Shown: positions 22,191 through 52,617, counted from the first letter of the stretch. The stretch: 64,000 nt of DNA from an uncultured Candidatus Pelagibacter sp. (GCA_943788395.1 CALSQC010000001.1:647035-711034); one strand, 5' to 3'. Translations and numbers: made by a program. Notes: generated by a model not told the origin, from the letters alone.

Positions 22191-23552
22191 TTAATTCGCA
22201 AATAATGTTTCTGGTAACCATAAAGCAATGCCAGGGAACATATACATTAAAAACATCGCAAATATTACAATTCCTAAGAAAGGCATAATTCCAGCAAATA
22301 TTTCCATCAACTCAACATTTTTAGTTTGAACACCTTTAAGATAATAAGCTGACATGGCCATTGGTGGTGTTAAAAAAGATGTCTGTAAATTTAAAGCAAT
22401 CAGCATTGCAAAAAAATAAGGGTTAACACCAAACACTTCTAGCAATGGTAAAAATATTGGTACAAATATAATCAAAATTTCTGTCCATTCCAATGGCCAA
22501 CCTAAAAGAAAAATTATTACTTGTGTAATTATTAAAAATTGCCAAGTAGTTATTTCTATTGATTTAAAAAAATGCTCAAAAACTTCATGGCCTCCTAAAT
22601 AAGAAAATACCGATGAAAAAGTCCATGATCCTATAAACAACCACATGATCATTGCTGTAGTCTTTGCTGTTAAAAACACAGATTCTTTAAAGCTTTGCCA
22701 TTTAAGAGTTTTATAAAACCAAGAAAGAAGTATTGCACCAAATGCTCCTGCTGCTGCAGCTTCTGCTGGAGTTGCTATTCCTGCTAAAATTGTTCCAAGT
22801 ACGAGCATTATTAAACCGAAAAGTGGTACAAAAGAAACTAACACTTCTTTTAGAATTTCTGCTCTTGGCGGAATGTCTTCTGCTGCTGGTTTTGGGGCTA
22901 TAGAGGGATTTATCCAAGCTCTAGTTACAGCATATGCTATGTACAAACCTGCTAACAATAATCCTGGAAAAATTGCTGCTGCAAATAGTCTTAATGGTGA
23001 TAATTGTGCAATTACAGAATAAACAATTAACATTATACTTGGAGGGATTAAAATTCCCAAACATCCACCAGCACAAATAACTCCAGACGCAAATTTTTTA
23101 TCATATCCTGCTTTCACCATTGCCGGCCAAGCAAGCAAGCCCATTAATGTTACAACAGCTCCAATAATTCCTGTTGCTGTAGAAAATAAAGTACAAGTTA
23201 TTAATGCTGCTACTGCCATTGAAGCAGGCAGTCTGTGTGCTGCTAATCTAATTGCAAAAAATAATTTCGCTACTATTCCTGCCCGCTCAACTAAATAACC
23301 CATAAATAAAAACAAGGGAACTGCGGTTAATACGTTATTATCCATAACTGAATAGGTGTTTTGTACAAATAATTGAAATATTCTATTATCAAATATATGA
23401 TCCATTAATGCTGGATCATAAAAAGCATAATATCCAAAACCTATTCCCATTGCCATTAAAGTGAATGCAATTGGAAATCCTAATAATACGGCAAATAAAA
23501 ATATTCCCATCATTAAGATAGCCACTTCTGGATTTGTTAAACTAAATAACAT
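22191..23552 (-). CDS. dctM: TRAP transporter large permease
   Basis: 453-aa polytopic DctM-like protein. Overlaps the dctQ end by 11 nt. Confidence 0.85.
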   Translation of the reverse strand: MLFSLTNPEVAILMMGIFLFAVLLGFPIAFTLMAMGIGFGYYAFYDPALMDHIFDNRIFQLFVQNTYSVMDNNVLTAVPLFLFMGYLVERAGIVAKLFFAIRLAAHRLPASMAVAALITCTLFSTATGIIGAVVTLMGLLAWPAMVKAGYDKKFASGVICAGGCLGILIPPSIMLIVYSVIAQLSPLRLFAAAIFPGLLLAGLYIAYAVTRAWINPSIAPKPAAEDIPPRAEILKEVLVSFVPLFGLIMLVLGTILAGIATPAEAAAAGAFGAILLSWFYKTLKWQSFKESVFLTAKTTAMIMWLFIGSWTFSSVFSYLGGHEVFEHFFKSIEITTWQFLIITQVIIFLLGWPLEWTEILIIFVPIFLPLLEVFGVNPYFFAMLIALNLQTSFLTPPMAMSAYYLKGVQTKNVELMEIFAGIMPFLGIVIFAMFLMYMFPGIALWLPETLFAN

Positions 23553-24130
23553 CTTTTTGATCCTCGTCTTGCGCTGTTCTCATTAAAATTTTTTCTGTTT
23601 CCTCTGCAACAACCATTCTTGCAGGCCAATGTCCTGTTTGAATACAAATTATTGATCTAAAAACTTCACTAATCCCTTGTATAATCAATAAAATACCCGC
23701 TGCAGGTATCATGGATTTTACCATATAAATTTGTATTTGAGCTGGGCTACTCCAGCTAGTTTCTTTTATTTTCCAAGCTAAAGCCGCATATTCAAATCCA
23801 TAAAATGCCAAAGCAACCACGCCTGGAAAAAAGAAAATAAAATAAAGTATCTAAATCTACCCATGCTTGCTTTCTAGGGCTAAATAATCTGTAAATTACA
23901 TCTCCTCTAACATGAGATTCTGTTGCTAAACAGTATGCTCCTGACATCATAAGTATCGCGCCATACATCTGCATGCTGAAATCAAAATTCCAAAGCGTTG
24001 GTTTATTGAAACCATAAGCCATTGTTACTTCGTAAACTGTTCCTCCCATTAAAATTACAATACACCAAGAAAAAGCTTTACCCATTGAGGTGCTTAGCGT
24101 GTCAGCAAATTTAATGAAAGATCTCATCAT
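23542..24130 (-). pseudogene. dctQ: TRAP transporter small permease interrupted by one frameshift
   Basis: The ORFs 23792..24130 and 23542..23820 rejoin as ...QAWVDL-ILYFIFFFPGVVALAFYGF... if one base near 23851 is removed. Confidence 0.7.
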
Positions 24131-24154
24131 TGTTAAATTATATTAAAATTAACT

Positions 24155-24183
24155 AAAAAAAAAGGGGGTTTTTACACCCCCTC
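24155..24183 (-). terminator. intrinsic terminator/attenuator between dctP and dctQ
   Basis: On the minus strand, a GGGGGT/ACCCCC stem (24164..24169 paired with 24176..24181) is followed by a run of 9 U. It starts 23 nt after the dctP stop. Confidence 0.7.
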
Positions 24184-24205
24184 TTTTAAAATTATCAAAA
24201 GTTAA

Positions 24206-25363
24206 TTAGATTTTAACTTTTCCAATTGGACCAAACTCGTTTTCATAAGCCAATTTGTAGTTCGGTTGATTCATCAACAGATACTTCATTGTTCTCTTAG
24301 CGTATGCTTTTTGTGAGTCTATTACTTTCTTAAAGAAAGCATCTTTGCCAGAAAACTCAGCAACGATTTTATCCCACCCTTTTAGCTGTTCAGCTAAAAT
24401 AGCGTCAGATGTTTGGTAAACATTAACCTTATGCTCATTCATCAATTTAGCTAAGTCAGTTGAATATCTAACTAGTGCCTTGAAGTAGTTATCTGAGTTC
24501 GCAGCATATGCAGCGTTCTTCAAGATAGCTTGGTGAGCAGGTGAAAGGCTTTTCAGTTTCTTAGTATTCATAGGAATTTCAAACATCTCTTGAGATTGGT
24601 GGAAACTTCCTAGGTGATAATGCTTAGAAACATCTTGCATTCCAAACTGTGAGTCTGATGTAGGGTTGTTAAACTCTGCAGCATCAATCAAACCAGTTTT
24701 CATTGCTGGTTGGATTTCACCACCTGGTAATTGTCTTACGACCATTCCCATAGCAGTTAAAACGTTAGTCGCTAGACCAACTGTTCTATACTTCATACCT
24801 TTAACATCAGATACTTTTGTTACATTCTTTTTAAACCAACCGAAAGGCTGTGCTGGCATAGGCATATGGAAGAAACCAGTGTAATCAAATCCTACACTTT
24901 TTACTGCTTCTTCATATAATGCTCTACCTCCACCATACTCCATCCATCCCATAACTTCTTGAGATGACATTCCGTATGAAGGACCAGTTCCAAAAAGTGA
25001 AGCTGCAGCATTTTTACCGTACCAGTATGCAGTCACCCAGTGACCCATATCTACTACGCCAGAACTTACTGCTTGTCCAATTTCAGAAGTTTTTACGATT
25101 GCGTTTACTGGCTGAAGATCAATTTTAAGTGATCCACCAGACATGTCGCTAACCATTTTTGCATAATCTCCTGCCATTTCAAAAAAGATGTTAGCGCCTG
25201 AAGGCCAAGCTGCTTGCATCTTTAGTGTTACAGGAGCTGCATTCGCTATACTAGGCATTGCTACAGCTGTTGCTGCTGCTGCACCTGTTGCGGCTGCTGC
25301 TTTAAAGAACTTACGTCTTGAAGGTGCTTTAGTTGCCTTCAAAGATTTTTTATCTTTAATCAT
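24206..25363 (-). CDS. dctP: TRAP transporter periplasmic solute-binding protein with a Tat-type signal
   Basis: 385 aa. Signal SRRKFFKAAAATGAAAATAVAMPSIANA. Codon usage is visibly different from its neighbours (TTC/TAC/AAC, GCA/GGT/GTA). Confidence 0.88.
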   Translation of the reverse strand: MIKDKKSLKATKAPSRRKFFKAAAATGAAAATAVAMPSIANAAPVTLKMQAAWPSGANIFFEMAGDYAKMVSDMSGGSLKIDLQPVNAIVKTSEIGQAVSSGVVDMGHWVTAYWYGKNAAASLFGTGPSYGMSSQEVMGWMEYGGGRALYEEAVKSVGFDYTGFFHMPMPAQPFGWFKKNVTKVSDVKGMKYRTVGLATNVLTAMGMVVRQLPGGEIQPAMKTGLIDAAEFNNPTSDSQFGMQDVSKHYHLGSFHQSQEMFEIPMNTKKLKSLSPAHQAILKNAAYAANSDNYFKALVRYSTDLAKLMNEHKVNVYQTSDAILAEQLKGWDKIVAEFSGKDAFFKKVIDSQKAYAKRTMKYLLMNQPNYKLAYENEFGPIGKVKI

Positions 25364-25491
25364 TATTTCTCCTTATTAGTTAATTAACTACGAATATTTA
25401 ATCATATAAATTGTCTGAAGTCTTATGGCAAATTTGACCTAATTAATAAAATTAACTTATTTACAACTATGGGTAGAACGTTTGATGTATT

Positions 25492-26489
25492 TTAATTAAC
25501 TTTATTTTTACAGTTTCCAGTTTTAAAAAACTCTTCAATATTATCTATAGCTAAATTCGCCATTGCTATTCTTGTGTGTTTGGTTGCGCTTCCTAGATGA
25601 GGTAAAATAAAAACACTTTTTATTTTTAAATATCCAGGATTTAAATTAGGTTCACCTTTATAAACATCTAAACCTGCTGCATAAATTTTTCTTCTATTCA
25701 ATGCATCAATTAATGCCTCATCATCTACAATATCTCCACGAGCTACATTTGTAATTACAGCACCAGTTGGAAAATACTCCAATGTTTCTTTATTAATTAA
25801 ATTTTCTGTTTCTTTGTTGCGGACAACAAATTGACAATACATCGAACAAAAAGACTTTTTAGATTGTCAACAAATTGACAATACATCAGATACAGAAAAG
25901 AGACTTTTTAGATTGTCATGATAAATAGCACCCTGCTCTTTTTCATCACTCAACTTGGATCTGTTATGATAGTGTATAATCATTCCTAATGATCTGGCAA
26001 TTTTAGCAATTTTTTGTCCAATTCTTCCCATTCCTAAAATTCCAAGTCTTGTTCCAGTTAATTGTTTTCCAATTAAATAATCAGCTGACCATTTCCAGTT
26101 ACTTTCTTTTGCACTTTGAATTCCTTCTGAAACTCTTCTGCAGGCACCCAATATTAATAAAATTCCAATCTCCGCAGTAGCATCTGATAAAACTTCAGGA
26201 GTATTGGTGACTGCTATCCCTCTTTTTTTTGCTGCCTCTAAGATCTATATTTCCAAAACCCACAGCAAAATTTGAAATAATTTTAATGCTACTTGGTAAT
26301 TTGTTAATAGTTTCTTCATCCATCTTATCTGTAAGAGAAGTTAAGATTGCATCATTTCCATTGCTCAATTCAATAAGTTTAGATTGAGAATACAATTCAT
26401 CATTATTATTAAATTTTGCCTCAAATAATTTTGAAGCTTTATCCTCTGACTTCTTTTAATAATCTTCTAGTAATAATTATTTTTTTCAT
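25492..26489 (-). pseudogene. D-isomer-specific 2-hydroxyacid dehydrogenase (glyoxylate/hydroxypyruvate reductase-like), multiply disrupted
   Basis: Fragments carry GILGMGRIGQKIA, NVARGDIVDDEAL and PHLGSAT. Frame breaks lie near 26453, 26240 and 25840, and a tandem duplication lies at 25824..25916. The start ATG at 26489..26487 lies 2 nt upstream of the glcF stop codon (26494..26492), so the two genes overlap by 3 nt. Confidence 0.85.
25824..25916. repeat. diverged tandem duplication (44 + 49 nt) inside the dehydrogenase pseudogene
   Basis: Copy 25824..25867 is caacaaattgacaatacatcgaacaaaaagactttttagattgt. Copy 25868..25916 is caacaaattgacaatacatcagatacagaaaagagactttttagattgt. Confidence 0.9.
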
Positions 26490-26491
26490 AA

Positions 26492-27784
26492 TCAATTCTT
26501 TTGTAATATTTTTGGTTTTGGTCCACCAGTATACCAATCTAAAATCTCAATGGTATGTAAAATTGGAGTTTTAGTTCCATTGAGCAATTTGAGTGATGCA
26601 ACCAATATTTCCAGTTGAAATAAAGTCTGGTTCTAAACTTTCAATATTTTTTACTTTTTTTCTCAATAATTCTTTTGCTATTTTTGATTGTAAAATATTA
26701 TATGTGCCTGCTGACCCACAACATATATGTCCCTCTGGAATTTCCATACTTCATTTCTCGTTCTTGTAAGTAATTCGATAGGTTGATTATGCACTTTTTG
26801 TCCATGCTGCATTGAGCAGGCTGAATGATATGCAATTTTATATTTTTTATCTTTTGATTTAAAATTTAATTTAAGATTTTCATTTAAATATTCTGTTACA
26901 TCTTTTGTTAGTTGAGAAATTACTTTGGCTTTTTTCTTCATTTTTTATCATCTTTAAAAATGAAACCGTAATCTTTCATTGTAGTTCCACAACCTGATGT
27001 ATTGGATAAAATTGCATCTAAATTTCCTTTTAAATGTTCATCGTACCATGTATTTATATTATTTCTAAAATCTTGATGTGCATCATCTTCTTTTCCAAGA
27101 TGATGATTTAAAGAACCACAACATCTAATTTTTTTTGGCACACTACTTCTACCCCATGTCGATTTAAAAGTCTTATAGTTGCTTCATTAATTTGTGGTGA
27201 AATTTCTTTTTGTACACATCCAGTTAAAAGTGCAACTCTAGAAATATTTTTTTTCCATTTACTTTATAAATTTCTTTTTGTTTAATCGTTTTTTTTGGAA
27301 AACTTGTCGGCATTAAACTCATCATATCTTTTATTTTTGAAGGAAATAAAAACTGCACTGGTTTTGATAATTTAACTAACAAGCTTGCTAATCTAAAATA
27401 TCCGGTATTAGGAAGGACAATAGATAAAAATTTTCTAATTAGCTCTATCAAAAAAAGGTCTTTCATAATTTTTTTCAATATATTTTTTTCCATGGTCAAT
27501 AATGTGCATATAATTAACTCCAGCTGGACATGTTGTCATACAGCTATAACAAGAAAGACATCTATCAATATGTTTTACTACTTTTGAAGTTGGTTTTTTT
27601 TCATTCTCCAACATATCTTTAATCAAATATATTCTTCCCCTTGGTCCATCTAATTCATCTCCTAATATTTGATGAGTAGGACAAGTAGCATTACACATTC
27701 CACAATGAACACATTTTTTAAAAATTTTATCTGAAGAAGCATTGTCAGCATCTTTAATTGATTTTTTGAAAAATTTGATTGCAT
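26492..27784 (-). pseudogene. glcF: glycolate oxidase iron-sulfur subunit, about 7 frameshifts
   Basis: Motifs CVHCGMCNATCP, CLSCYSCMTTCP and two CCGS(L/A) are spread over at least 6 frame-shifted pieces. Breaks lie near 27752, 27437, 27245, 27140, 26941, 26747 and 26580. The ATG at 27784 overlaps the glcE TAA. Confidence 0.85.
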
Positions 27785-28992
27785 TAAACTCCTCTATACA
27801 TCTTTCCTGGATTAAATATTCTTTTTGGATCAAAGCTTTTTTTATTTTTTCTGATATTAATAATCTTGTTTCATTTACTGTAAATATAGTTTCTTCAAAA
27901 TCAAATTCCTCAGATTTTTTAATAATTGTTAAATATCCACCAATTTCTTGGTAATTTTTTTAATTTCTTTTATTTTTCATTTTTTGTAGATGGAACTTCT
28001 ACCCAAAATAAAGAACCACACCAATCAATATAATACTTAAATTTATTTTCAATATTTTGAATTAATTTAATACTTGATGATGGAGGTACTACAATTCTTA
28101 ATAAATTATTATTTGTTTGATTAAAAAGTTCAAGACTATTTATCTTTTTTCCAAAATGGAATTGATTGATGCACATCTAGTATTGTGGTCTTAATTTATC
28201 TAATTCTAATTCTTGATTTAATTCTTTAATTTTTTCATTGATAGATACTTTGTCTCCTTCAACCCTGATGCCTAAAAATGACTTATTAGATATTAGATCA
28301 TTAAATTTGAAAACTCTTTCTTTATTATATTGATATCTTCATCTTTTGGTTCCTCTGGAATAAATACTGCACCAGAAACATCGCTACTAGAGCTTGATAT
28401 TTTTTCAAATAATTCATTAACTAATTTTTTTTCCTCTGTATAAACAACAATTGTTGAGCATGATTTTTGTTTAGGTAAAACTTTTAAAGTAACTTCTGTT
28501 AGCGCTACCAGTGTTCCAAAAGCACCAGCAATCAATTTAGATAAATCATATCCAGTAACATTTTTTACAACTGTTCCACCAGATTTAATAATATCACCTT
28601 TTCCATTTACACCTCTAAAACCTAAAATATGGTCTCTTACACTTCCAACTTTAAATCTTCTAGATCCAGCAAAATTACAAGACAAGTAACCAGCAACTGT
28701 ACCCTTATTTGATTTTCCATCTTTTATAAAGCCAAAGTCAACAATTTCAAATGCGAGTTCTTGATTGTTTTTTTCTAATTCTTTTTCAACTATTTCTAAA
28801 GGTGTGTTGCCTTTAACTTTTATATAAAGTTCCTCTGGAAGGTATTCCACTATACCTGAAATTTTTGATAAAGATAATCGTTCTGCACACTGAGTTTTAT
28901 TTCCAATAAAATTTTTAGTGTTTGTTCCAACCAGTTCTATTGGAGAATTTTTATCATATAGTTCTTTTACTATATTAGAGACTTGTCTTCAT
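27784..28992 (-). pseudogene. glcE: glycolate oxidase FAD-binding subunit GlcE, 4 frameshifts plus an in-frame TAG
   Basis: Pieces carry GIVEYLPEELYIKVKGNTPL, GGTVVKNVTGYDLSKL, YYIDWCGSLFWVEV and the C-terminus SFDPKRIFNPGKMYRGV*. Breaks lie near 28982, 28300, 27975 and 27945. The TAG is at 28179..28177. Confidence 0.85.
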
Positions 28993-29012
28993 CTTCTGGA
29001 TAATAAGTTTTA

Positions 29013-30510
29013 TCAGAATCTTGGAAGATCTGGGAATTTTTCTTCACCTCTGTGAACATGAACCCTTCCTTCCTCTGCACATTTCTCTTAAAATTGGATA
29101 AACTTTTCCTGGATTTAACAAATTTTTTTCATCTAAAGATTTTTTAATATCTAATTGTTGTTGAATATCTTTATCATTAAACATTTCACACATTAATTCT
29201 CTTTTTTCAACTCCAACACCGTGCTCACCAGTTATTACTCCTCCTAATCTTACACAGGTCTTTAAAATTTCAGCTCCAAATTCCTCAGTTCTTTTAAGTT
29301 CTTCTTTATTGCTTCCATCAAACATTATTAGTGGGTGCAAATTTCCATCACCTGCGTGAAAACAGTTTGCAACAGGTAAATTATATTTTTTAGATAAATT
29401 TTTTATTTCTAACAAAGCTTCAGCTAATTTTCCTCTTGGTATCGATCCATCCATACAATAATAATCTGGCGCCATAGCTCCACATGCGGGGAACGCTGCT
29501 TTTCTTCCTGCCCAAAATGATAATCTTTCTTTTTCATTTTTGCTAAGCTTTAAACTTGAGCAATTATTTTTCTTACAAATATTACTGACCTGATTTAAAA
29601 GCTCATCAACTTCAGAGACTGTTCCATCTAATTCTACTATTAATAAAAGCTCAGCATCTCTTGGATATCCTGCTTTACTAAAGTTATCTGTAGCCTCTAT
29701 TAATGCTTTATCCATTATTTCCATACCCGCAGGAACAATTCCACTTGAAATAATTTCTGATGCTGCATTTCCACCTTCTTCTATAGTAGGAAAACCGATC
29801 AATGCTGCTTTAACAACTTGAGGATTTTTAAGGATTTTTACTGTTGCTTCTGTAATCACACCCAATAACCCTTCAGATCCACAAATCAAACCCATAAGAT
29901 CATATCCTTCTTGATCAAGAGTTTTTCCACCAACTCTACAAATTGTTCCATCCATCATAACAATTTCAACTCCAAGAATATTATTAGTGGTAGTTCCATA
30001 TTTTAAAGAATGAACGCCTCCAGAATTTTCAGCAACATTTCCTCCAATCGAACATGCAAGTTGGCTTGATGGATCTGGTGCATAATAAAACCCTTTATGT
30101 TTTACCGCATCAGTAATTCCAAGATTTGTTACACCAGGTTGGGTTACAACACATTTGTTTTCAAAATCAATTTCTAAAATTTTATTAAATTTTCCAAGAC
30201 TTAATAATACAGCATCATTTAAAGGTAGTGCTCCACCTGAAAGACCTGTGCCTGCTCCTCTTGGAACAACTTTTACATTTTCTTTATGACAAAATTTTAA
30301 AATATTACTTACTTCAGCTGTATTTTCTGGCATCACAACAGCTAATGGTGTTTGAGTATAAGCAGCTAAAGCGTCAGTTTCATATGGCTTAATCTCATCT
30401 TTATGAGTTAAAACATTCTCTGGATTTATAATTTTCGAAAGATTTTTAAAAATATATTCTTTTTTACTAATCGTTGCTTCATCAATTTTTGGTAAGACCA
30501 ATTCACTCAT
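29013..30510 (-). pseudogene. glcD: glycolate oxidase subunit GlcD with a frameshift about 24 codons before the native stop
   Basis: 488-aa ORF with PRGAGTGLSGGA. Its tail ...YPILREMCRGRKGSCSQR* is out of frame. Removing 1 nt near 29085 restores ...LRKCAEEGRVHVHRGEEKFPDLPRF* ending at 29013. It may still be functional. Confidence 0.65.
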
Positions 30511-30515
30511 AGGTC

Positions 30516-31680
30516 TTAGCCTAGCATTTTTTTTATATTTTCCAATGCGTTAGATATGTTATCTTGAGAGGCTGCAAAGCTAAATCTCACGTAATCATTG
30601 CATGTTTTGCCAAAAGCAGTTCCAGGCACAATAGCAACTCCAGCTTCATGCATGGCTTTTTTACAAAATTCTGCACCATTCATCCCTGTTCCTATTACCT
30701 TTGGAAATGCATAAAAAGCACCACCTGGAAGACTACACTCAACTCCTGGAAGGTCATTTAACCCTTTATGAATTAAATTTCTTCTTTGTGTAAATTTCAC
30801 CATCATTTCATCAATCGAGTCATCTGGGCCATCTAATGCTGCTATTCCTGCAAACTGTGCCGCTGCATTTACACATGATACACTATTAATTAAAAGTTTA
30901 TTTACATGAGGAACTAATTCTTTAGGCCAAAAACTCCAACCTAATCTCCATCCTGTCATTGAATAAGCTTTGCTCCAACCTTCTAATACAATTAATCTTT
31001 CTCTAAGTTCTGGATAGTTAAAGAATGTTGGCATTTCTTTTCCATCAAATATTTGTCTGCTGTAAATTTCATCACTTAATATTGTTACATGTGGGTGTTT
31101 TTTAAGTCCCTCTGCTAACACATCAATATCTGCTTTATCTACAAAGCTTCCCGTTGGATTGTTAGGGTTTATTAATATTAACAATCTAGTTTTATCAGTA
31201 ATTAATGATAAAATTTTTTCAGGATTAAACTTTAAGATCTTTATCTTCAGTTAAATCATAAGGAACTGATGTTGAGCCTGTATAATTAATCATAGACTCA
31301 TAAATTGGAAAAGCTGGTGTAGGGTGGATTATTTCTGCACCCGGCTCACCAAAACATTGAATCGCATAACTCATTGTTGGTTTTCCACCTGGCATGATTA
31401 AAATTCTTTCAAAATCTATATCGACACTATAACGTTTTTTAATCCATCTCGTTACAGCTTGTCTACATTCTGGAATACCATTGGACATTACATAACCATG
31501 GTGTCCATCATCTAATGCTTTTTTTGCAGCTTCAACAATGTGTTTAGGTGTTTTAAAATCAGGCTGCCCTAGACCTAAATGTATCATTGGGTTTCCTTTG
31601 GCTTCTAATGCTTTAGCTTCTGCTAAAACGCTAAATGCTGACTCTGTTCCTAGATTATTTAAATTTTTTGCTAATTTCAT
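30516..31680 (-). pseudogene. class I/II (aspartate-type) aminotransferase split by one frameshift
   Basis: The 151-aa and 222-aa ORFs rejoin as ...TEDKDLK-FNPEKILSLITDKTRLLILINPNNPTG... if 1 nt near 31230 is removed. PLP-Lys context SKAYSMTGWRLG. Confidence 0.8.
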
Positions 31681-31752
31681 ATTTAATTCTATTATTTTTA
31701 TTTTTTTAATTAATTTATTTTTTTTATATCTACTTTTTATAAGTTATTGAAG

Positions 31753-32904
31753 TTATTTTCTATAGATCAATTTTGTCTCATTGAGTTCTTTAATATTCTT
31801 ACATCCCATTAAGACCATATTTCTATTAATTTCATCATGCATATTTTGAAGCAACCGCTCTACACCTGGTTGACCAGCAGCACCTAATGCAAACAAAAAC
31901 ATTTTACCAAAACTACAAGCTGTTGCACCTGCGGCTAAAGCTTTTAAAACATGTGTTCCACGTCTAATTCCACCATCTAAAATAATTTCTAATTTATCAC
32001 CTACAGCATCTGAAATTGCTTTAACTTGATCAAATGGTGATCTTGATCCATCTAATTGCCTGCCTCCATGGTTTGAAATCATTATTGCAGTACATCCAAT
32101 ATCAATTGCTTTTTTTGCATCTTCAACTGACATCACACCTTTTAAAGCAAAAGGACCATTCCATTTTTTTACACAATACTCAGCATCTTTCCAATTCATT
32201 GCTGGATCATACTGTTCGTTAATGTATTCGATTACTGATTTTGAAATATTTGTTCCTTTATCAGTTTTATTTTTTACATTAGATAATTCAAATTTACTGT
32301 GTGTAAAATAATTAAATACCCATTCTGGATGCATTGCAAAACTCATTAAACTTTGTAATGTAAGTTTGGGTGGAGTTGTAAAACCTGTTCTGTGATCTTT
32401 TTCTCTATTACCTGCAACTAAAGTATCAACTGTTAAACACATTCCATCAAAACCAGAGATTTTGCATCTGTCTATTAGATCATCTGTAATAGATTGATCT
32501 TTATGAACATAAAGCTGAAATAGTTTCGGGCCATTAGATATCTCTGCTATTTCTTCGATCGTATTATTTGCCATTGTTGACATGCTATAAAATGTTCCAA
32601 ATTTTTCCGCTGCTCTTGCAGACGCCTTATCTCCATCATGATGATAAAGTCTTTGCATTGCTGCCGGTGATAAAAAAACTGGCATATCAATTTTTTTTCC
32701 AAAAACTGTAGTTGATAAATCTGGTTTACCAACACTAGCCAAAATATTAGGAACTAAATCACAATCATTAAATGAATCTGTATTTCTTCTTAAGGTTACC
32801 TCATCGTCAGCACCACCATCAATGTAATGAAAAATCGGAGAAGGTAATCTTTTTTTTGCTAATTTTCTAAAATCATCAAAATTATAACAATTTTTTAAAT
32901 TCAT
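31753..32904 (-). CDS. FMN-dependent alpha-hydroxyacid oxidase/dehydrogenase (LldD / glycolate oxidase family), intact
   Basis: 383 aa. The SNHGGRQLD motif and a TIM-barrel FMN family layout. Confidence 0.85.
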   Translation of the reverse strand: MNLKNCYNFDDFRKLAKKRLPSPIFHYIDGGADDEVTLRRNTDSFNDCDLVPNILASVGKPDLSTTVFGKKIDMPVFLSPAAMQRLYHHDGDKASARAAEKFGTFYSMSTMANNTIEEIAEISNGPKLFQLYVHKDQSITDDLIDRCKISGFDGMCLTVDTLVAGNREKDHRTGFTTPPKLTLQSLMSFAMHPEWVFNYFTHSKFELSNVKNKTDKGTNISKSVIEYINEQYDPAMNWKDAEYCVKKWNGPFALKGVMSVEDAKKAIDIGCTAIMISNHGGRQLDGSRSPFDQVKAISDAVGDKLEIILDGGIRRGTHVLKALAAGATACSFGKMFLFALGAAGQPGVERLLQNMHDEINRNMVLMGCKNIKELNETKLIYRK

Positions 32905-32913
32905 TAAAAAAAT

Positions 32914-33423
32914 TTAAAATCTTTTTAAAAAATTGAGCATATAACTATTAGCACCTGGATTTTTATCTCCTAGGTTAGCATTAGAAATATGATTATACTT
33001 TAGCCCAAACTCACTATTTTCAAACAAGTCTACCGTAAGCTGCAACTCAGATTTGAATTCAACTATATGTCCAAGATTTTTACCATTGCCCTCGCCATAA
33101 AGACCAGGCGTAAAGCTTGGATTAAAATTTAATTTTCCCAACTTGTACTGAGCTTGTACTCCCGTATAAACGTATGATGCACTATTTTGCATAAACATTA
33201 CACCTGTAACTGGTGAAATATTTCCTAGAAAAGTATCTCTATTTAATTCTTCATTTTGATGTTGAATTCCAATTAATGATGTAACTTTGCCTTCATCACT
33301 AAAATCAAATTTACCAGTATAAAAACTATACTCAGTATTTTTTTCTTCTGAGTTAACAGGTAAAATAAAAGCACCTAAAGCGACAGCTAAGATTACTTTT
33401 TTTAATAAATTATTAATTTTCAT
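32914..33423 (-). CDS. outer-membrane lipid A deacylase (PagL)-like protein
   Basis: Signal peptide from MKINNLLKKVILAVALGAF and a C-terminal beta-barrel with an HISN motif. I use the start at 33423 rather than the track's 33489. Confidence 0.5.
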   Translation of the reverse strand: MKINNLLKKVILAVALGAFILPVNSEEKNTEYSFYTGKFDFSDEGKVTSLIGIQHQNEELNRDTFLGNISPVTGVMFMQNSASYVYTGVQAQYKLGKLNFNPSFTPGLYGEGNGKNLGHIVEFKSELQLTVDLFENSEFGLKYNHISNANLGDKNPGANSYMLNFLKRF

Positions 33424-33425
33424 TT

Positions 33426-33785
33426 TTATTTCAATTTTTTCCTTATTATTGCACCACCAAGCAAAAATAACAATAACGGTAATATCCAAAGAATATATGT
33501 GTTTTTATTTAATTCTGGCTCAAAGATTACCCAATCACCATACCTTTTTCTTAAAAATTCATAAATTTGTTTCTCAGATTTGCCTTCATTAATTTTCTTT
33601 TTAACAAGAAGTTTAATAGTAGAAGAAAATTCAGACTCAGAGTCATAAACAGACTGACCTTGACAAACTAAACAACGGATATTTTTTAAAATTTTGTTAT
33701 TAAGATTTTTATCTTTTATATCAGTATTCGCATTAGCGATATTTATAAATAAAACCACTAATAAAAATGTTTTTAATATTCTCAT
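33426..33785 (-). CDS. ccmH: cytochrome c biogenesis protein CcmH
   Basis: 119 aa. Signal peptide, the CLVCQGQS (CXXC) motif and a C-terminal TM helix. Confidence 0.85.
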   Translation of the reverse strand: MRILKTFLLVVLFINIANANTDIKDKNLNNKILKNIRCLVCQGQSVYDSESEFSSTIKLLVKKKINEGKSEKQIYEFLRKRYGDWVIFEPELNKNTYILWILPLLLFLLGGAIIRKKLK

Positions 33786-41372: not shown

Positions 41373-41376
41373 ATAA

Positions 41377-44265: not shown

Positions 44266-44271
44266 TCTAAT

Positions 44272-45414
44272 ATGATATTTGAAGCCTCAAGGGCCAAGGC
44301 CGTTGATCAATTAAATAACTTTGTAGAAAATAATTTATCAGATTATTCAAAACTAAGAAATTTTGATTTTGGGCCTAGCAATAGAACAAATATTTCTTGT
44401 CTGTCTCCATATATAACCCATGGTGTGATCAATGAATTAGAGTTAATTGATAAATCGCTTAAAAAATTTACGTTTGCAAAAAATGAAAAGTTTATTCAAG
44501 AAGTTTTATGGCGTGTTTACTGGAAAGGTTGGCTTGAACTAAGACCAAATGTTTGGTCAGACTATTTGATAGAATTAGATAAAATTAAAAGTCAATTTAA
44601 AAACAACCAAAATTATTTAGATGCTATTGAGGGAAAAACAGACATTGAGTGTTTTAATCAGTGGATAATTGAACTTAAAGAAAATAACTACCTCCATAAC
44701 CACACTAGAATGTGGTTTGCTAGTATTTGGATATTTACACTAGAATTACCATGGCAATTAGGTGCAGAATTTTTTATGCAACATCTTTATGATGGTGATC
44801 CTGCATCAAACACTCTTGGTTGGAGGTGGGTAGCTGGTATTCAAACTCAAGGTAAACATTATTTGGCTACTGAATGGAATATAAATAAATTTACCAATAA
44901 TAGATTTAAAAACATAAAACTTAATGAAAATGCTCAACCAATATTTAGTGATAAAACTTACTCGATTAATAAAAAAGATTTTTTAAATTCTGAAATCTTA
45001 GAAGATAAAACTTTATTAATATTTGAAAATAATATGACATTTGAATTTTCTGATTTTAAAGAACATAAATTTAAAAAAATTTTGTTAGTCTCAAATAATA
45101 CAAATAGAACTATCAGAATTAAGTGAAAAAGTGTTGAAATTTAAAGCTAATCTTTTAGAGGATCAAAAAATAAGATTAGAAGAAAAATCAATTAATTGTG
45201 AAATTACTAACATTAATGATTTAAAAAATATTACTGAAGAAGTTTATGCTCTTTATCCAACTGTTGGTGAAAATTTAGATTTTATTCAAAATAATCAATT
45301 AAAAATATTAAATTTTTATATAGAAAATTAGATCAGTTTTCTTGGCAATATTGTAATAAAGGTTTTTTTAATTTTAAAAATTATATTCCAAAAATTATTG
45401 CTAATTTTAATTAA
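44272..45414 (+). pseudogene. photolyase/cryptochrome-family FAD-binding-domain protein (no N-terminal alpha/beta domain), 2 frameshifts
   Basis: LSPYITHGV, WRVYWKGW and NHTRMWFASIW...DGDPASNTLGWRWVAG motifs. The frame changes between 45090..45126 and again between 45310..45331. The restored ORF ends at 45414. Confidence 0.7.
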
Positions 45415-45634
45415 AACCAACGTATCATTCCAATTATACCAGCTGTTGCATAAAAAAATTGTAATACAAGTATTCCCTTATGACCTCCTCTATAGGCCCA
45501 GATACCAATTAAAATAGCTGATAACAAGTAACAAACAAAATCCCAAAAACTCTATTCCAATATTTAAGGCTACAAATAAGGAATATAAGAATTGCTGTAA
45601 CAACCCCTGCCCATTCAAAAAATTTATTATTCAT
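45411..45634 (-). pseudogene. small (about 74 aa) membrane protein with one frameshift
   Basis: The span is 224 nt, not a multiple of 3. Frame 0 gives MNNKFFEWAGVVTAILIFLI... The terminal frame gives ...LLSAILIGIWAYRGGHKGILVLQFFYATAGIIGMIRWF*. The switch is at about 45510..45550. Its stop interlocks with the stop of the convergent gene. Confidence 0.35.
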
Positions 45635-45635
45635 T

Positions 45636-46307
45636 TTATAATTTTTTTATTTGTTTAAAATTTTTATCAAAATTTATCTTTTTTAAATAATTCAAAAATC
45701 TTTTTTTATTTTTAGGCCATTCTTTATCTAAAATAGAGAACCAGGCTGAATCTCTGCTTCTACCCTTAAAAATAAACATTTGTCTAAACACACCTTCAAA
45801 TCTAAAACCCAATCTTAAAGCTGCTTTTTTTGAGGATGAATTTAAATTATTACATTTCCACTCATATCTTCTGTTCCCCAAAACTTCAAAGGCATTTTTC
45901 ATCATCAAATACATCGTTTCAGTTCCTTCAACTGAATTTTGAAGAAGTGGAGAATAATTAATGTGCCCAACTTCAATTGAACCATGATCTGGTTCAATTC
46001 TTAGATAGCTCGCCATTCCACAATATTTTTTGTGTCTTTTGGAATAAATTGAATAAAAAAAAGGATCCTTGTTTAAACAAAATGATTTCATCCAATTTCT
46101 AAAATTTAAATAAGTTTTAAATGGCCCATAAGGCAAGTACGTCCAAATTATATTCTTTTTATCTTTTGAATATTCTGAATATAAGCCTTTTGAATGTTTG
46201 CTAACATTTAAAGGTTCAAGAATTGTATAATTTCCAACTAATTTTTTCTTTAATGGTAACTTTGCTTTTTTAAATTTTACCTTAGGGCCTAGTTTTAATT
46301 TATTCAT
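45636..46307 (-). CDS. GNAT-family N-acetyltransferase (RimJ/RimL-like)
   Basis: 223 aa. The C-terminal ...NLNSSSKKAALRLGFRFEGVFRQ... acetyl-CoA-binding region. Confidence 0.75.
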   Translation of the reverse strand: MNKLKLGPKVKFKKAKLPLKKKLVGNYTILEPLNVSKHSKGLYSEYSKDKKNIIWTYLPYGPFKTYLNFRNWMKSFCLNKDPFFYSIYSKRHKKYCGMASYLRIEPDHGSIEVGHINYSPLLQNSVEGTETMYLMMKNAFEVLGNRRYEWKCNNLNSSSKKAALRLGFRFEGVFRQMFIFKGRSRDSAWFSILDKEWPKNKKRFLNYLKKINFDKNFKQIKKL

Positions 46308-47024
46308 AATATTTTTTTAAAATTCTTATAAAGAATCTTAGAATAATTATTCATATCAGTCATATTATTTTTGGCAGCTTTATCAAATTTTTCTAATGCT
46401 CCATCTCCTAATTGATCTTCTAAGAGCTTTTTTATATTCTGGCACACATCCCCATTCATTAACTGTAGTGTCTTTAATTTCAATATGAAATTGAATTGCA
46501 TATGCATGATTTTGGTATTTAAAAATTTGATATTTGGTAACAGGAGATGATGCTAGTAAAGTTACATCCTTATTATTTTCTATTCCTTGCACTTCATAAG
46601 AATGCCACTGCAAACTTTTAATTTGCTCTGGAAATTTTGAAAATAAGATGTCTTCATTTTTTTCTTTAGTAAAATTGATATCCATAATCCCAATTTCTGC
46701 TGGATTTGATTTAACTACCTTGCCACCTATTACCTCACCTAGTAATTGACACCCAAGACAAAAACCTAAATAAGGTTTTTTTAAATTAACAACAAATTCT
46801 TTAATTGCTTTTTTTTCTTCAATTAGCCATGGGTATTCTTGTTCCATAAAAGTATCCATTGGACCACCCATACAAAACATTCCATCAAATTTACTTAGAT
46901 CGCTTGGAATTTTTTCACCTTCATCCAGTTCTATGGTGGTTAATTTAAAGCCATCAGCTAACATTAAATCTTTGATATAGCCTGGGTCTTCAATTTTTAT
47001 ATGTTGTAAAACTATTATATTCAT
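46304..47024 (-). pseudogene. class I glutamine amidotransferase with a C-terminal frameshift
   Basis: GFCLGCQLL nucleophile elbow and HIEI His/Glu. Removing 1 nt near 46421 joins ...VPEYKKAL to EDQLGDGALEKFDKAAKNN...KKIL*. Confidence 0.7.
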
Positions 47025-47027
47025 TCC

Positions 47028-47443
47028 TTAACCGATCAAATAGAAGACTAGAAGGTATCTACTTACTTTTCCAATTGCTACTAAAATAATAAAATCTAAA
47101 AACCTAACTCTCAATAAACCTGCAACTAAAGTTAGTGGGTCGCCTAAAATAGGAACCCAAGCAAATAATAACGACCATTTACCAAATTTATTAAACCACT
47201 TTGATGATCTTTCTATTTGTGTTTCTTTAAATGGAAACCATTTTTTTATAGTAAGATTTCTTGAATAAAATCCTAAAACCCAATTAACAACTGAACCTAA
47301 GACATTCCCAAAGCTTGCAACAATTAACAATAATACATTATCATAATTTGATGTTGTAATTAACCCTGCTAACGTAAGCTCAGATGAAAAGGTAAAATGG
47401 TTGCAGCTAAAAAGGATATAAAAAATAAAGATAAATAAATCAC
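47028..47443 (-). pseudogene. YqaA/DedA-type (SNARE-associated) membrane protein with an N-terminal frameshift
   Basis: A GTG start at 47443 gives [20 protein letters not shown] 1-nt loss in a T-run near 47388 separates it from SSELTLAGLITTSNYDNVLLLIVASFGNVLGS... Confidence 0.65.
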
Positions 47444-47562
47444 TTCGAACACTTTTTAGAACAATACTTTACCTTGTCCCAATTTAGCTTCCATTTTTTG
47501 CGCCAGACGAAAGGTCTTTTACAAACTGGACAAACTTTTGATGGTAAATTTTCTTTTTTCAC
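47440..47562 (-). CDS. DUF2256-like zinc-ribbon protein, 40 aa (missed by the ORF track)
   Basis: My translation is [40 protein letters not shown]. There are two CxxC/CxxxC pairs. The GTG start overlaps the upstream TAG (TAGTG) and the stop overlaps the downstream GTG (GTGA). Confidence 0.6.
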
Positions 47563-49050
47563 TAAATTGTATTTTTTTTAATGAATTTATCTGCTTCAGA
47601 CAAAATCATTTTTTTTCTTTCATCTTTCATTTTATCAAAAATTCGAACCATCATAGATAATCTTGGATTTTTTAAAAAAAATTTTCTATTTCGATCAATG
47701 AATCTCCAGTAAAGACCATCCATCGTATTACACCATTCCCCTTTTTTAAAATCCATCATCTTCATAAAATAAGCAGATCCACAAATGTATGGTTTAGTTG
47801 CAAAAATTCCTCCATCACTAAATAAACCCATTCCATAAACATTGGGTACCATCACCCAGTCAGATGAATCTACAAACATTTCCATAAACCATTTATAAAC
47901 AATGTTGGTTTAACCTCACAAAGGTTCATGATATTTGATAAAATCATTAATCTTTCAATATGATGAGACCAACCATGATCAACGGCGTTTTTAATTGCAT
48001 GATCTAAGGGAGGTAAACCTGTTGTTCCTTCATACCAAGATTTTTTCATTTTTCTTTCATGTTTAAAAAAATTTTTTGTTTCCATTTCATCAGAATAACC
48101 TTGATAAATTCCACGCATAAACTCTCTCCAACCTATTACCTGACGAATATAACCTTCAAGTGAATTCATTCTAATTTTATGTTTTTTATGAAATTCTAAA
48201 ACTTTTTGAATAATAAATTCAGGAGTTATTAATCCAAATTAATATATGGACTTAAAGCACTATGAAATAAGATATTATCTTTTTGATTAACAGCATCTTC
48301 ATAGTCACCAAATAAATTAGATTTTTCTTTGATAAAAAAATTGAGAAGTTTAACTACATCATCATATTCGGTTGCTAACCAGAAGTTATTTGTACTACCT
48401 GGGTGGTCTTTAAATATTTTTTCAATAATTGGTTTTAATTTTTTAGTATGGCTTGTTTCATTAATTTTTGGAAATTTTGGAATTGAAATGTCCTTAGGTA
48501 ATTTATTTCTGTTATCTTCATCAAAACTCCATTTACCACCAATGGGCTGTCCATCAGCACCCATCAATATTCCAGATTTTTTACGAACTTCTTTATAAAA
48601 AGTTGCCATAAAAGGTTTTTTTGATTTTCCTAAATAATTTTTAAACTCATCTCTAGAATTTAAAAACATTGGGGTTTGAATAACATTCCAATTAATTTTT
48701 TCTTTTTTTAAAAATTGTGAAATTTTTTTTTCAAAAAATTTATCTTCTACTTCAAAACTGGTAATTTCTTTTATTTTTTTTTGTGTGATTATTTTTTTTA
48801 ATTTTTTAAAATAATCATCTTTAAAATCTTTGTCTTCAATTTTAAGATAATCTAATTTATATTTATTTTTCTTAAGACTATCTGCATAAGACCTCATAGA
48901 AGACAAGAATAGCAAGATTTTTTGCTTATGATGTTTTTCATAGGTGCATAATCCGTTATCTTCTGCCATAAAAAACACATGGTCCTTTTTGAAGCGGTCT
49001 ACGTATTTTAATGGAAATAATTGATTGCCAAGTATAAAAAACAATTTCAT
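47562..49050 (-). pseudogene. photolyase-related protein (COG3046 / FeS-BCP-type), 2 frameshifts
   Basis: Three ORFs (273, 99 and 107 aa) rejoin as ...HSALSPYIN-GLITPEF... near 48235 and ...LCEVKP-NIVYKWFMEMFVDSSDW... near 47907. Motifs GWREFMRG, GWSHHIERLM and KPYICGSAY are present. Confidence 0.8.
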
Positions 49051-49077
49051 AGTTAAATATAACTAATTAAAAATTAT

Positions 49078-49789
49078 ATGTCAGAAAAATATCTTATTTT
49101 TGGTGCGACAGGTTCTGTAGGTTCTAGCTTAGCTGAACAGTTAAAAAATTCAGGTAATGATATTCATTTGGTTGCAAGAAATGAAAGTGAAGTTAAAGCA
49201 ATTGCTGAAAAATTGGGTTGCTCTTACACTGTAGCTAATGTTTTAGATGAGGGTTTTATCGAAAAAGTTAAAAGCAGATGTTGCTGAAATAAAGGGTATT
49301 GCTTACTGTGTTGGCTCTATTGATTTAAAGCCATTAAGAATGGTTACTGAAGCAGATATGAATAAATGTATGAAATTAAATCTTTATTCAGCTATTGAGG
49401 CTATCAAAGGATTTCAAGAAAGTTTAAAAAAAAATAAAGGCTCAATTGTTTTGTTTTCGACCGTTGCTGCTCAAAGAGGATTTACTAATCATACAATCAT
49501 TGCTTCTGCAAAGGCTGCTGTAGAAGGTTTGACTGTAACTCTTGCTGCTGAATTTGCCCCACATATTAGAGTAAATTGTGTAGCTCCAAGTTTATCAAAA
49601 TCAAAAATAGCAGAACCTATGTTAAAAAATCCAACTATCGCAGAAGGTATTGCTAAAGCTCATCCACTTAAAAGATTGGGTGAAGGAAAAGACTCTGCTG
49701 CTCTTGCAAAGTTTTTGATAACTGAAGAAAGCTCTTGGGTTACTGGCCAAGTTATTGCTGTTGATGGTGGAAGATCTAAATTATCTTAA
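49078..49789 (+). pseudogene. short-chain dehydrogenase/reductase split by one frameshift
   Basis: IFGATGSVGSSLA NAD(P) fold. An A-run near 49270 shifts ...GFIEKVK away from ADVAEIKGIAYCVGS... The tail reads VTGQVIAVDGG. Confidence 0.75.
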
Positions 49790-49796
49790 AATTAAA

Positions 49797-50063
49797 TTAT
49801 TTATCTAAAAGTTTTTTCTTTGCTTTTTCAAATTCTTCTTCAGTCAGAGCACCAGTTTTATAAAGTTCATTCAATTTAACTAACTCATCAGACAGATTTT
49901 CATCACCAACTTTTAATTGATCATTTTCATTTTCTATATTTCTAGTCTCCTCCAAAGCTCTTTCATTCTTTGCTTTAAAACCTGTTAAGATTGCTGAAAC
50001 ACCTAAATACAAAATAAAAACCAGAACGGGTAATGCTAAACTTAAAAAAATTATTTTTTCCAT
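49797..50063 (-). CDS. single-TM protein with a C-terminal SHOCT-like domain
   Basis: 88 aa. N-terminal TM helix and C-terminal LNELYKTGALTEEEFEKAKKKLL. Confidence 0.5.
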   Translation of the reverse strand: MEKIIFLSLALPVLVFILYLGVSAILTGFKAKNERALEETRNIENENDQLKVGDENLSDELVKLNELYKTGALTEEEFEKAKKKLLDK

Positions 50064-50087
50064 TATCTCTTTATATATTGATTTTAA

Positions 50088-50291: not shown

Positions 50292-50387
50292 AAGAAATAT
50301 TATTAAAAATAACCCTTAATTAAAATATAAAATTATGAGGCAAATAATCCTCTCAATTTATCTTCATTAATTTTTGATTAAATGAGT

Positions 50388-51233
50388 TTATCTTTGAGAT
50401 CTTTTAAAACACTCGATAGTATTTTTTAATAGGCAGGCAATCGTCATTGGTCCTACACCACCAGGTACTGGTGTTAAAGCTTTTGCAACTTTTGAAACTT
50501 CCTCAAATGCAACATCACCTACAATTCCTTTGTCAGTTTTATTAATACCAACATCTATCACGATCGCATCTTTTTTAACCCAATCTGCTTTGACAAGCTC
50601 TGGTATTCCAACTGCAGCCACAATTATATCAGCCTCTAAACATTCTGCTTTTAAATCTTTTGTTTTAGAGTGTGTGATTGTAACTGTGCAATTTTCCTTT
50701 AAAAGCAATTGTGCCATCGGTTTTCCATTTAAATTTGATCTTCCAACCATAACTGCTTTTTTTCCATTTAAGTTTGGTTCAATTTTTTTAATCATCAAAT
50801 AACATCCTAACGGGGTACAAGGAACTGAGCTTTCATAACCTGAGGAAAGGTTTCCAACATTCATTGGGTGAAATCCATCTACATCCTTTGAGGGAGCAAT
50901 TGCTTCAATAACTTTTTGTTTATCAATGTGTTTTGGTAATGGTAATTGAACTAAAATACCAGACACAGTCTCATCGTTATTTAATTCTTCAATTTTATCT
51001 AGTATTGTTTTTTCTTCAACAGCTTCTGGATATTTAATAACTTCTGATTTCAATCCTACTTCATTTGCAGATTTTTCTTTGTTCCGAACATAGATTTGAC
51101 TAGGAGCCATATCACCAATTAAAATAACTGTTAAACCAGGAACTTTATTATATTTAGTTTTTAGCTCAGAAACTTCTTTTTTTAGCTCTTCTCTTAATTC
51201 TGCTGCTGCTTTTTTTCCGTCTATTAAAATCAT
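50388..51233 (-). CDS. folD: bifunctional methylene-THF dehydrogenase / methenyl-THF cyclohydrolase
   Basis: 281 aa. Motifs IDGKKAA, YVRNKEKS, VGRSNLNGKP and PVPGGVGPMT. Confidence 0.95.
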   Translation of the reverse strand: MILIDGKKAAAELREELKKEVSELKTKYNKVPGLTVILIGDMAPSQIYVRNKEKSANEVGLKSEVIKYPEAVEEKTILDKIEELNNDETVSGILVQLPLPKHIDKQKVIEAIAPSKDVDGFHPMNVGNLSSGYESSVPCTPLGCYLMIKKIEPNLNGKKAVMVGRSNLNGKPMAQLLLKENCTVTITHSKTKDLKAECLEADIIVAAVGIPELVKADWVKKDAIVIDVGINKTDKGIVGDVAFEEVSKVAKALTPVPGGVGPMTIACLLKNTIECFKRSQR

Positions 51234-51243
51234 TTTATTTTCT

Positions 51244-51534
51244 CTAAAAAATCATTGGTGCGATGTAAAGCTTCATACACATTTCTATAAACCAAATCAA
51301 CAAGAGTAATACTATTGGTGATACATCTAGTGAACCTAAATTTGGAAGAAAACCTCTAATTTTGTTTAATATTGGGTCTGTTAATTTGTAAGTCATTTCT
51401 AAAATCGAATAAACAAATCTATTTTGCGTGTTTAAAATGTTAAATGCAATTAACCAACTGATGATAACATTTGCTATAACTACATAGGAATAAAGTTTTA
51501 ATACTTGAAGAACTAAGTAAAAAATAGCTATCAT
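51244..51534 (-). CDS. YGGT-family membrane protein
   Basis: 96 aa. LTDPILNKIRGFLPNLGSLDVSPIV matches the YggT pattern. Confidence 0.7.
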   Translation of the reverse strand: MIAIFYLVLQVLKLYSYVVIANVIISWLIAFNILNTQNRFVYSILEMTYKLTDPILNKIRGFLPNLGSLDVSPIVLLLLIWFIEMCMKLYIAPMIF

Positions 51535-52617
51535 TTTTTTTCTATATAAATCGACTGGCTTGGGAACGCAAAAGATGCATTATTTTTCTCAACTATTTGT
51601 TTAATTTCGATTGCCAATCTTTCTTTTACAGACAGCCATTCATTCCAACTATCTGTTTTTGTAAAACAACGAACATACATGTCTATGGAGCTGTCAGAAA
51701 ATTTATCAATTCTTACTGCCACTCCAACACTTGTATTATAATCTTCGCTTTTATTAATATAATTTTCAATTTGATCTCTTATAGTCTTAAGTTGATTAAC
51801 TGTCGTGTCGTATTGAAGTGTTATTATCCAACTAATTAGCCAGTTTGAAGTTTCACTTACATTAATGACTGCATTTTCTGCAAATTGAAAGTTAGGAATT
51901 ATTGCTAGCGACTTATCGAATTTTCTAATTGTTGTAGATCTAAAACCAATTTTTTCAACTATACCCTCTATAATTCCATCCACCATGATCCAATCACCTA
52001 TTTTAAATCTTTTTTCTACTAAAACTAAAATACCAGAAATTAAATTTTTAAATAAATCTTGTGCACCTAATGCAACTGCTACACCGAATAAACCTAGTCC
52101 TGCAATAATTGGTCCAATTTTTATTCCCCAAAGTTCGAGTACAGCCGCAAGACCTAATATAAAAATTAAAATCTTAAGAGATTTTATTATCCAACCAATT
52201 AATTCTCGTGTTAACATTTTATCTAATCCACTTAAAATATAAGAGATTGGTTCAATAATTTGATGAATTACCCAAAAAATGAAAATAGTAATTAGTGTTC
52301 TATTAATTGTATCAACAACTGCTCTGCCATCTTCAGCAAATGACATATAATAACTCGCAATAAAAAATCCTAAAACAATTGGTAAAAATCTTGCTGGCCC
52401 TTCCATTGCATGAACAAAAGTATCATCCAATTTATTAGTTGTTTTTTTTGCAATACTTTGCTAATCTTTTGATAATCACTTTACTTATGATTCCTCTAAA
52501 AATTAAAAAAATAAAAAATATACTAATACCAATTAAGATTTGAAAAATATCAACTCCATGAATCCCTTTGGACCAAACTGATAAAAATAATTCACTAAAA
52601 TTATTAAATAATTCCAT
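51531..52617 (-). pseudogene. MscS-family mechanosensitive channel with an N-terminal frameshift
   Basis: The 60-aa ORF (first TM) and the 299-aa ORF (FKIGDWIMVDGIIEGIVEKIGFRSTTIRKFD...IPN) rejoin as ...RLAK-IAKKTTNKLDDTFVHAMEG... with a 1-nt change near 52455. Confidence 0.7.

Follow-up and report, generated by a model that had tools for sequence, protein, structure and literature searches.

Genuine clusters of pseudogenes are found in reductive or host-restricted genomes, such as those of Mycobacterium leprae and Rickettsia. Real pseudogenes have a ratio of non-synonymous to synonymous substitution rates (dN/dS) near 1, carry many private substitutions per indel, share their lesions with relatives by inheritance, and accumulate indels that are of the slippage type or biased towards deletions. 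Here, we analysed a 64,000-nucleotide stretch of an uncultured Candidatus Pelagibacter sp. (GCA_943788395.1 CALSQC010000001.1:647035-711034; hereafter, the window), which is SAR11-like with a G+C content of ∼30%, and in which 13 genes, among them the glycolate oxidase genes glcDEF and two photolyase-like genes, are broken in two blocks. The window is similar to the Mycobacterium leprae and Rickettsia cases in having multiple frameshifts per gene and broken genes lying in clusters, but it has none of the traits of real pseudogenes listed above (dN/dS, private substitutions, inheritance and indel bias). Comparison of related sequences indicates that the lesions are very probably consensus errors, produced by merging two or more co-occurring SAR11 haplotypes into one contig.

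Frameshift artefacts have been described in long-read metagenome assemblies and metagenome-assembled genomes (MAGs), together with the gene truncation detected by IDEEL-type tests and the tools for frameshift correction (PMC9262707). As in those assemblies, the broken open reading frames (ORFs) of the window have no signature of decay, belong to one assembly series, and are intact in short-read assemblies and isolate genomes. Unlike the usual long-read artefacts, which are homopolymer indels spread genome-wide, the errors here are limited to strain-polymorphic islands and the homopolymers are clean; their signature is that both alleles of a single-nucleotide polymorphism (SNP) are present in tandem, or that the SNP base is dropped. 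A strain-collapsed consensus is the problem addressed by Strainberry (PMC8302730) and myloasm (10.1101/2025.09.05.674543). The window resembles such a consensus in being a fine-scale mix of two haplotypes (A and B, defined below), and tandem misassemblies are present in the sister contigs L012/L013 and L006; it differs in that the mixture at the level of reads is presumed.

Hypervariable regions and population microdiversity of SAR11 have also been described (PMC11796062). Like them, the window has near-identical sequence around two islands in which diversity is raised, and gene content varies in one of the two. Unlike them, the first island (dctPQM-glcDEF-aminotransferase) shows allelic divergence of a conserved operon and is not a gene-content island. 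What underlies the lesions biologically is the ordinary microdiversity of SAR11, here concentrated in a pair of islands of which one also varies in gene content; the window shows nothing beyond this known microdiversity and nothing biologically new.

Frame-breaking lesions in two blocks

We counted the lesions by codon-aware alignment of each gene to an intact orthologue from near-identical contigs. The 13 genes carry 32 lesions, of which 31 are indel events that break the frame and one is a stop codon (Table 1). Thirty of the events are single-base, and the remaining one is a 43-bp stutter. All the lesions are confined to 23.5-31.7 kb (block 1) and 44.2-52.6 kb (block 2), and the chance that 32 lesions placed uniformly over 64 kb would all land in these 16.5 kb is ∼1e-19. 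Consistent with this, short gene fragments in the ORF map were present only in the two blocks, with tight tiling of ORFs elsewhere in the window, and DNA comparison of 14.3-23.5, 31.7-35.3, 40.5-44.2 and 52.6-61.1 kb gave no short indel. The majority of the lesions are single-base events outside homopolymers, and few are length changes of A/T runs.

These results agree with much of the initial annotation. It had named the same 13 genes, with ∼28 lesions where the codon-aware alignment gives 32, and had seen no breaks outside the two blocks, which both the ORF tiling and the comparison of lesion density between blocks and flanks bear out. Its description of mixed lesion types holds for the indels outside runs, which make up most of the events, and less so for those in A/T runs, which are few. 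The nonsense codon and the diverged duplication that it reported are both real: the duplication is the 43-bp stutter, and the stop codon lies at its junction.

The two copies of the stutter differ by deletions only, apart from one mismatch at the junction. We considered the variant copy as a piece of a second haplotype and rejected this, as it was absent from every other contig when all the fetched loci were searched. The stutter has the look of noise in the reads or of a local misjoin or misassembly, and not that of an evolved duplication.

Table 1. Broken genes, the stutter duplication and the polymorphic islands of the window. Base pairs in quotes are the two SNP alleles present in tandem; del, the polymorphic base itself is deleted.
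Feature	Position	Strand	Intact length (aa)	Lesions	Details
dctQ, TRAP small permease	23545-24130	-	195	1	extra base 23851/23852, 'CT' at a C/T SNP
2-hydroxyacid dehydrogenase	25495-26488	-	317	4 + stop	1-bp deletion 25815; stutter 25823-25865; stop 25867; 'GA' 26243; 'CT' 26450
43-bp stutter duplication	25823-25865				first copy is the second copy minus 5 bases
glcF	26495-27784	-	431	7	single-base indels 26583 ('GA'), 26746, 26940, 27141, 27246 (del), 27442 ('AG'), 27752 (del); all on SNPs
glcE	27787-29059	-	426	7	single-base indels 27836 (del), 27950 (del), 27976 (del), 28143, 28190 (del), 28337 (del), 28986; all on SNPs
glcD	29016-30510	-	498	1	extra base 29086, 'CT' at a C/T SNP; gives a 488-aa form
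aminotransferase class I/II	30519-31680	-	387	1	extra base 31231-31233, 'CT' at a C/T SNP
FAD_binding_7 photolyase-like protein	44272-45411	+	380	2	'AG' 45116; G/A SNP base 45304 (del)
membrane protein	45414-45634	-	73	2	'AG' 45528; 'AG' 45589 (also in L020)
class I glutamine amidotransferase (GATase)	46307-47024	-	239	1	extra base 46421; gives a 213-aa form
VTT-domain/YqaA-like membrane protein	47031-47452	-	141	1	G/A SNP base 47387 (del)
DPRP-type photolyase/cryptochrome (PF04244 + FAD_binding_7)	47565-49050	-	496	2	deletions 47901 (del, T/A SNP) and ∼48230-48238 (variable site)
short-chain dehydrogenase (SDR)	49078-49786	+	236	1	extra base 49270-49273 in a multi-allelic stretch
MscS-type mechanosensitive channel	51534-52617	-	361	1	extra T 52462
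polymorphic island 1	25400-33500				10-27 substitutions per kb vs sister contigs; haplotypes A and B interleaved
polymorphic island 2	44270-49800				10-50 substitutions per kb vs sister contigs; gene content varies

Coincidence of the lesions with population polymorphism

Sister loci were found by exact-protein look-up with DctP (24206-25363, minus strand) and FolD (50388-51233, minus strand), both of which are intact in the window. The look-ups gave 20 near-identical loci, 19 of them from ENA assemblies and one from an NCBI MAG, in which the 13 genes were mostly whole and had the expected Pfam domains. Further panels were four close contigs from another metagenome collection (L022-L025), the contigs L003 and L008, and 80 Pelagibacter genomes. 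The closest GTDB genomes have at most 89% DNA identity, which makes them usable for assessing intactness but not for comparison at the level of haplotypes.

As judged from these contigs, the SAR11 population is near-identical except in two polymorphic islands, which are the broken blocks. The flanks (14-23, 34-35, 40-44 and 50-61 kb) mostly have 0-4 substitutions per kb, with ∼10 in a few bins, and the window has more indels per kb where SNPs are denser in the other contigs (Spearman rho 0.58, P = 4e-5). Island 1 is syntenic among the relatives, and its alleles alone differ. We took L004 as haplotype A (L004/L001 type) and L003 as haplotype B (L003/L008/L023-L025 type). At the 236 sites where the two differ, the window has the A allele in 141, the B allele in 86, a gap in 5 and another base in 4, and the A and B alleles alternate at a scale of tens of bases. 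Changes private to the window with respect to the panel were 3 substitutions and 21 indels in block 1, and 4 substitutions and 5 indels in block 2, so that 26 private indels stand against 7 private substitutions.

The single-base lesions fall on the polymorphic sites. When sister contigs, other metagenome contigs, L003/L008 and GTDB genomes were considered together, 29/30 single-base coding indels were located on a SNP between related contigs. With eight sister contigs only, 21 of 34 isolated 1-bp indels matched SNP columns (binomial P = 3e-11 in block 1, 3e-5 in block 2), and the probability that 19 or more of the 21 block-1 lesions would be at or adjoin an A/B SNP was 7e-14. The sites matched to SNPs by the added panels are 26583 (G/A), 26746, 26940 (T/A), 27141 (T/C/A), 28986 (G/A), 31231 (C/T), 48230-48238 and 52462.

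The nature of the events is equally specific. Column-by-column inspection revealed that the insertions are the two SNP alleles in tandem at a minimum of 11 sites, and that deletions remove exactly the polymorphic base (Table 1). For example, at 23851 L001 and L002 have C, the other contigs have T, and the window has both; at 31231, T is present in L008 and L025 and C in the others. In the MscS gene, the window sequence 'TTTGCTAAT' at 52462 is a hybrid of 'TTTGCAAT' and 'TTTCTAAT'. The lesions are also concentrated where the two haplotypes are balanced: 17 of them lie at a B-allele fraction of 0.42-0.62, and 4 at 0.11-0.25.

The sister contigs bear single-base indels of their own within these islands, and some of the sites are shared with the window. 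The indels coincide significantly with SNPs in L005, L006, L014, L018 and L020, and not in L017, L019 and L007. The majority of the window lesions are absent from all the near-identical contigs. The shared ones are as follows. In glcE, the deletions at 27950, 27976 and 28986 are common to L003/L008, and the sites 28143, 28190 and 28337 are affected in L005/L006. The glcD event is also present in L001, L005 and L010, whereas the short-read contigs L023-L025 do not have the extra base. In block 2, the 213-aa form of GATase is found in L012, L018 and L019, the YqaA deletion at 47387 in L014 and L017, the DPRP deletion at 47901 in L014, and that at ∼48230-48238 in L020 and L021. The 273-aa DPRP fragment of the window is also encoded by ERZ10646505 contig_763, and L020 has the same deletion.

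Outside this series of contigs, the genes are nearly always whole. Frameshifted copies amounted to about 27-29/126 in the sister contigs with Flye-style names, 3/314 in 80 other metagenome contigs, and 2/329 in 80 Pelagibacter genomes and single-amplified genomes. GlcF was full-length in 80/80 of the metagenome contigs and DPRP in 80/80 of the genomes. Exact look-up of the 151-aa aminotransferase fragment and of the 488-aa GlcD of the window gave no match in other assemblies. The alignment to orthologues of other SAR11 that the initial annotation had suggested showed mostly intact genes, with only some lesions shared, and these with sister contigs. As the ENA sister records are named contig_N or scaffold_N, in the manner of Flye, we infer a long-read metagenome assembly as the origin of the window.

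Two sister loci contain larger tandem structures. In L012/L013 (ERZ10646082 contig_7588), a 7.9-kb segment from hemC to the photolyase gene is in tandem, and in L006 (1-2400) an AhpC-CcmH-PagL segment is in tandem. Both look like misassembled structural variants and like a further sign that this series of assemblies collapses strains.

Probable collapse of haplotypes and the competing explanations

How merging of haplotypes could break reading frames may be pictured as follows. Over most of the window, the haplotypes would be near-identical and the consensus therefore unambiguous and clean. In the islands (∼25.4-33.5 and ∼44.3-49.8 kb), they would be a few percent apart and present at comparable frequency. 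If the error model used for consensus or polishing treats indels as cheaper than mismatches, as is the case for long reads, the two SNP alleles could be aligned as an insertion plus a deletion. Near a 50:50 ratio, the output would then keep both alleles (a 1-bp insertion, C/T becoming CT) or neither of them (a 1-bp deletion), and every such event would shift the reading frame. Collapse of this kind predicts tandem alleles, dropped SNP bases, dependence on allele balance, clean homopolymers and clean flanks, and the artefact would be local because the polymorphism is local. We observed indels at sites that differ between haplotypes, inserted bases equal to the alternative allele, a remaining sequence that is a mix of known haplotypes, errors that rise towards 50:50, and loci that are intact when obtained by other methods and variably broken within the series. 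The algorithmic step itself is what we infer from this pattern; it stays at that level since two papers that deal with frameshift errors and with strain-related problems of long-read assemblies do not describe the tandem-allele signature.

The initial annotation had offered two causes, one of them a real pseudogene cluster that would point to recent relaxation of selection on specific functions. In such a case, frameshifts would have accumulated in one SAR11 lineage after selection was relaxed on glycolate oxidation, photolyases and neighbouring genes. The lesions do exist in the sequence and form clusters, the functions of glcDEF and the photolyases are accessory-like, the gene content of island 2 is variable, and a few lesions recur in other assemblies, all of which would suit such a cluster. 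Comparison of the 13 broken genes with their intact orthologues, however, gave 139 synonymous and 33 non-synonymous codons, with mostly third-position changes. This pattern indicates purifying selection, and it could not have lasted for long alongside seven frameshifts in each of glcF and glcE. Relaxed selection also does not explain why 29/30 single-base indels sit on SNPs with insertions that reproduce both alleles, or why private indels exceed private substitutions, the reverse of real bacterial divergence. Genes of unrelated function (dctQ, mscS, the SDR and the aminotransferase) are struck by position alone, their orthologues are intact in nearly all of the ∼640 gene copies of other assemblies (∼5 broken), and the truncated aminotransferase and GlcD products are unmatched elsewhere. 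A dN/dS near 1, heritable lesions with private substitutions, and indel positions independent of SNPs were not what we found, and we regard a pseudogene cluster as highly improbable. The annotation's own alternative, a locally poor consensus, is the one that gained support, and it can be narrowed to two islands with coexisting haplotypes.

A poor consensus could also have come from generic platform noise, i.e. homopolymer errors of the 454 or Nanopore type, or from locally low coverage, in either case unrelated to strain mixing. The 43-bp stutter with its deletions and the unexplained deletion at 25815 do resemble raw-read noise, and L003, L008 and L017 are broken in many places, the former two also outside the islands. 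The window contains 222 long homopolymers (A/T of at least 7, G/C of at least 5), with A/T runs of up to 11 bases, and, as the initial annotation had noticed, the long A/T runs are clean: none of ∼144 comparable A/T runs of 7 bases or more had changed its length. The two differences seen near A/T runs are losses of an adjoining non-T base, both at SNPs. Generic homopolymer error is therefore excluded. Neither would random errors spare the ∼27 kb of compared flank, fall on SNPs (P = 3e-11 to 7e-14), or insert exactly the alternative allele, and the equal lesion density genome-wide that would mark a platform artefact was not seen, the lesions being local within the window. Noise or low coverage thus has a very slim chance of being the cause. 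Tolerated biological frame changes, by programmed ribosomal frameshifting or at phase-variable contingency loci, have nothing in their favour beyond the presence of frameshifts. The lesion sites have no simple-sequence tracts or slippery heptamers, there are up to 7 shifts per gene, and their positions are conserved in none of the relatives examined, which makes this explanation the most improbable of all, close to negligible.

Several points weigh against attributing the lesions to collapsed haplotypes. The mixture of haplotypes in the source sample and the co-occurrence of L003, L004 and L008 with the source of the window are presumed, and the assembler is suggested by contig names alone. 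The comparators L003 and L008 are themselves error-ridden, although L023-L025 bear out most of their alleles. The count of allele switches, tried as a test for chimerism, was dropped as it is not diagnostic on its own: L025, a real and more divergent short-read contig, also looks random. The deletion at 25815, which adjoins the stutter, is the sole single-base lesion without a matching SNP; the second allele at 52462 was found only in more distant Pelagibacter genomes, which makes the MscS lesion a weaker case; and the indels of L017 coincide with SNPs in 6/27, which is not significant. Moreover, lesions that recur across samples (the 273-aa DPRP, the 213-aa GATase and the 488-aa GlcD) could in principle be real alleles. 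Candidates for real loss-of-function alleles in the SAR11 population, within islands where A and B are at intermediate frequency, are the DPRP truncation near 48238 (window, L020 and L021), the 213-aa GATase and the 488-aa GlcD; we consider this improbable, if a little less so than a pseudogene cluster. With collapse as the cause, the recurrent 273-aa DPRP fragment fits a reproducible artefact that arises whenever these two haplotypes are found together.

The claim that SAR11 genomes have no pseudogenes is left unchallenged by the window. Contigs of this kind sit in public archives, one sister contig also at NCBI, and, if taken at face value, they would raise pseudogene counts, break up gene families in pangenomes, and mislead metabolic reconstructions, for instance by making glycolate oxidase or photolyase seem lost. 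The signature can be read without raw reads and from few related sequences: single-base indels located on population SNPs, insertions that hold both alleles, and private indels in excess of private substitutions. These three parts together could flag such regions automatically.

Variable gene content and other features of the window

In island 2, the window has a junction at 49796 where a segment of ∼1,055 bp with a glucose/sorbosone dehydrogenase-like gene (GSDH, PF07995, 363 aa) is either present or absent. The segment is absent from the window, L014, L019, L020 and L021, and present in L011, L012 and L015-L018. Gene content next to GATase varies as well (L016 14728-17193, L021 12757-18411, L015 16002): an acetyltransferase is present or absent, MarC lies beside GATase in the NCBI MAG, and type IV pilus/type II secretion system genes lie there in L021. 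In this part, island 2 resembles a hypervariable region of small size. Between the YqaA-like and DPRP genes lies a 40-aa ORF of the DUF2256 family (PF10013; 47440-47562, minus strand), for which L016 and L017 have gene calls; although inside the island, it is intact in the window.

Between dctP and the 2-hydroxyacid dehydrogenase gene, the intergenic stretch 25395-25452 has several short indels and differs among nearly all the sister contigs; as a non-coding stretch, either highly variable or prone to error, it was kept outside the lesion count.

An Rfam scan of the window gave the ffh leader RNA motif (RF01793; 17049-17102, minus strand; 54 bits, gathering score 35), just upstream of ffh/SRP54, as its only match, a tRNA scan gave none, and neither scan yielded anything relevant to the lesions. 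Two coding regions contain tandem repeats. The 3' part of rpsP, which encodes ribosomal protein S16, has a perfect 48-bp tandem repeat in 4.6 copies (15121-15342), and its copy number varies among the sister contigs to give an S16 of 168, 181 or 184 aa. At its 5' end, the acetyl-CoA synthetase ORF (acs) has a 30-bp tandem repeat in 5.3 copies (55806-55961). Here, the window has an extra degenerate 24-bp copy (55939-55962) that is in frame and makes the protein 711 aa instead of 703 aa, and L014 has an extra 31-bp copy, with the gene fragmented. The extra copy in the window may be another stutter of the consensus, which went unnoticed since the frame was kept.

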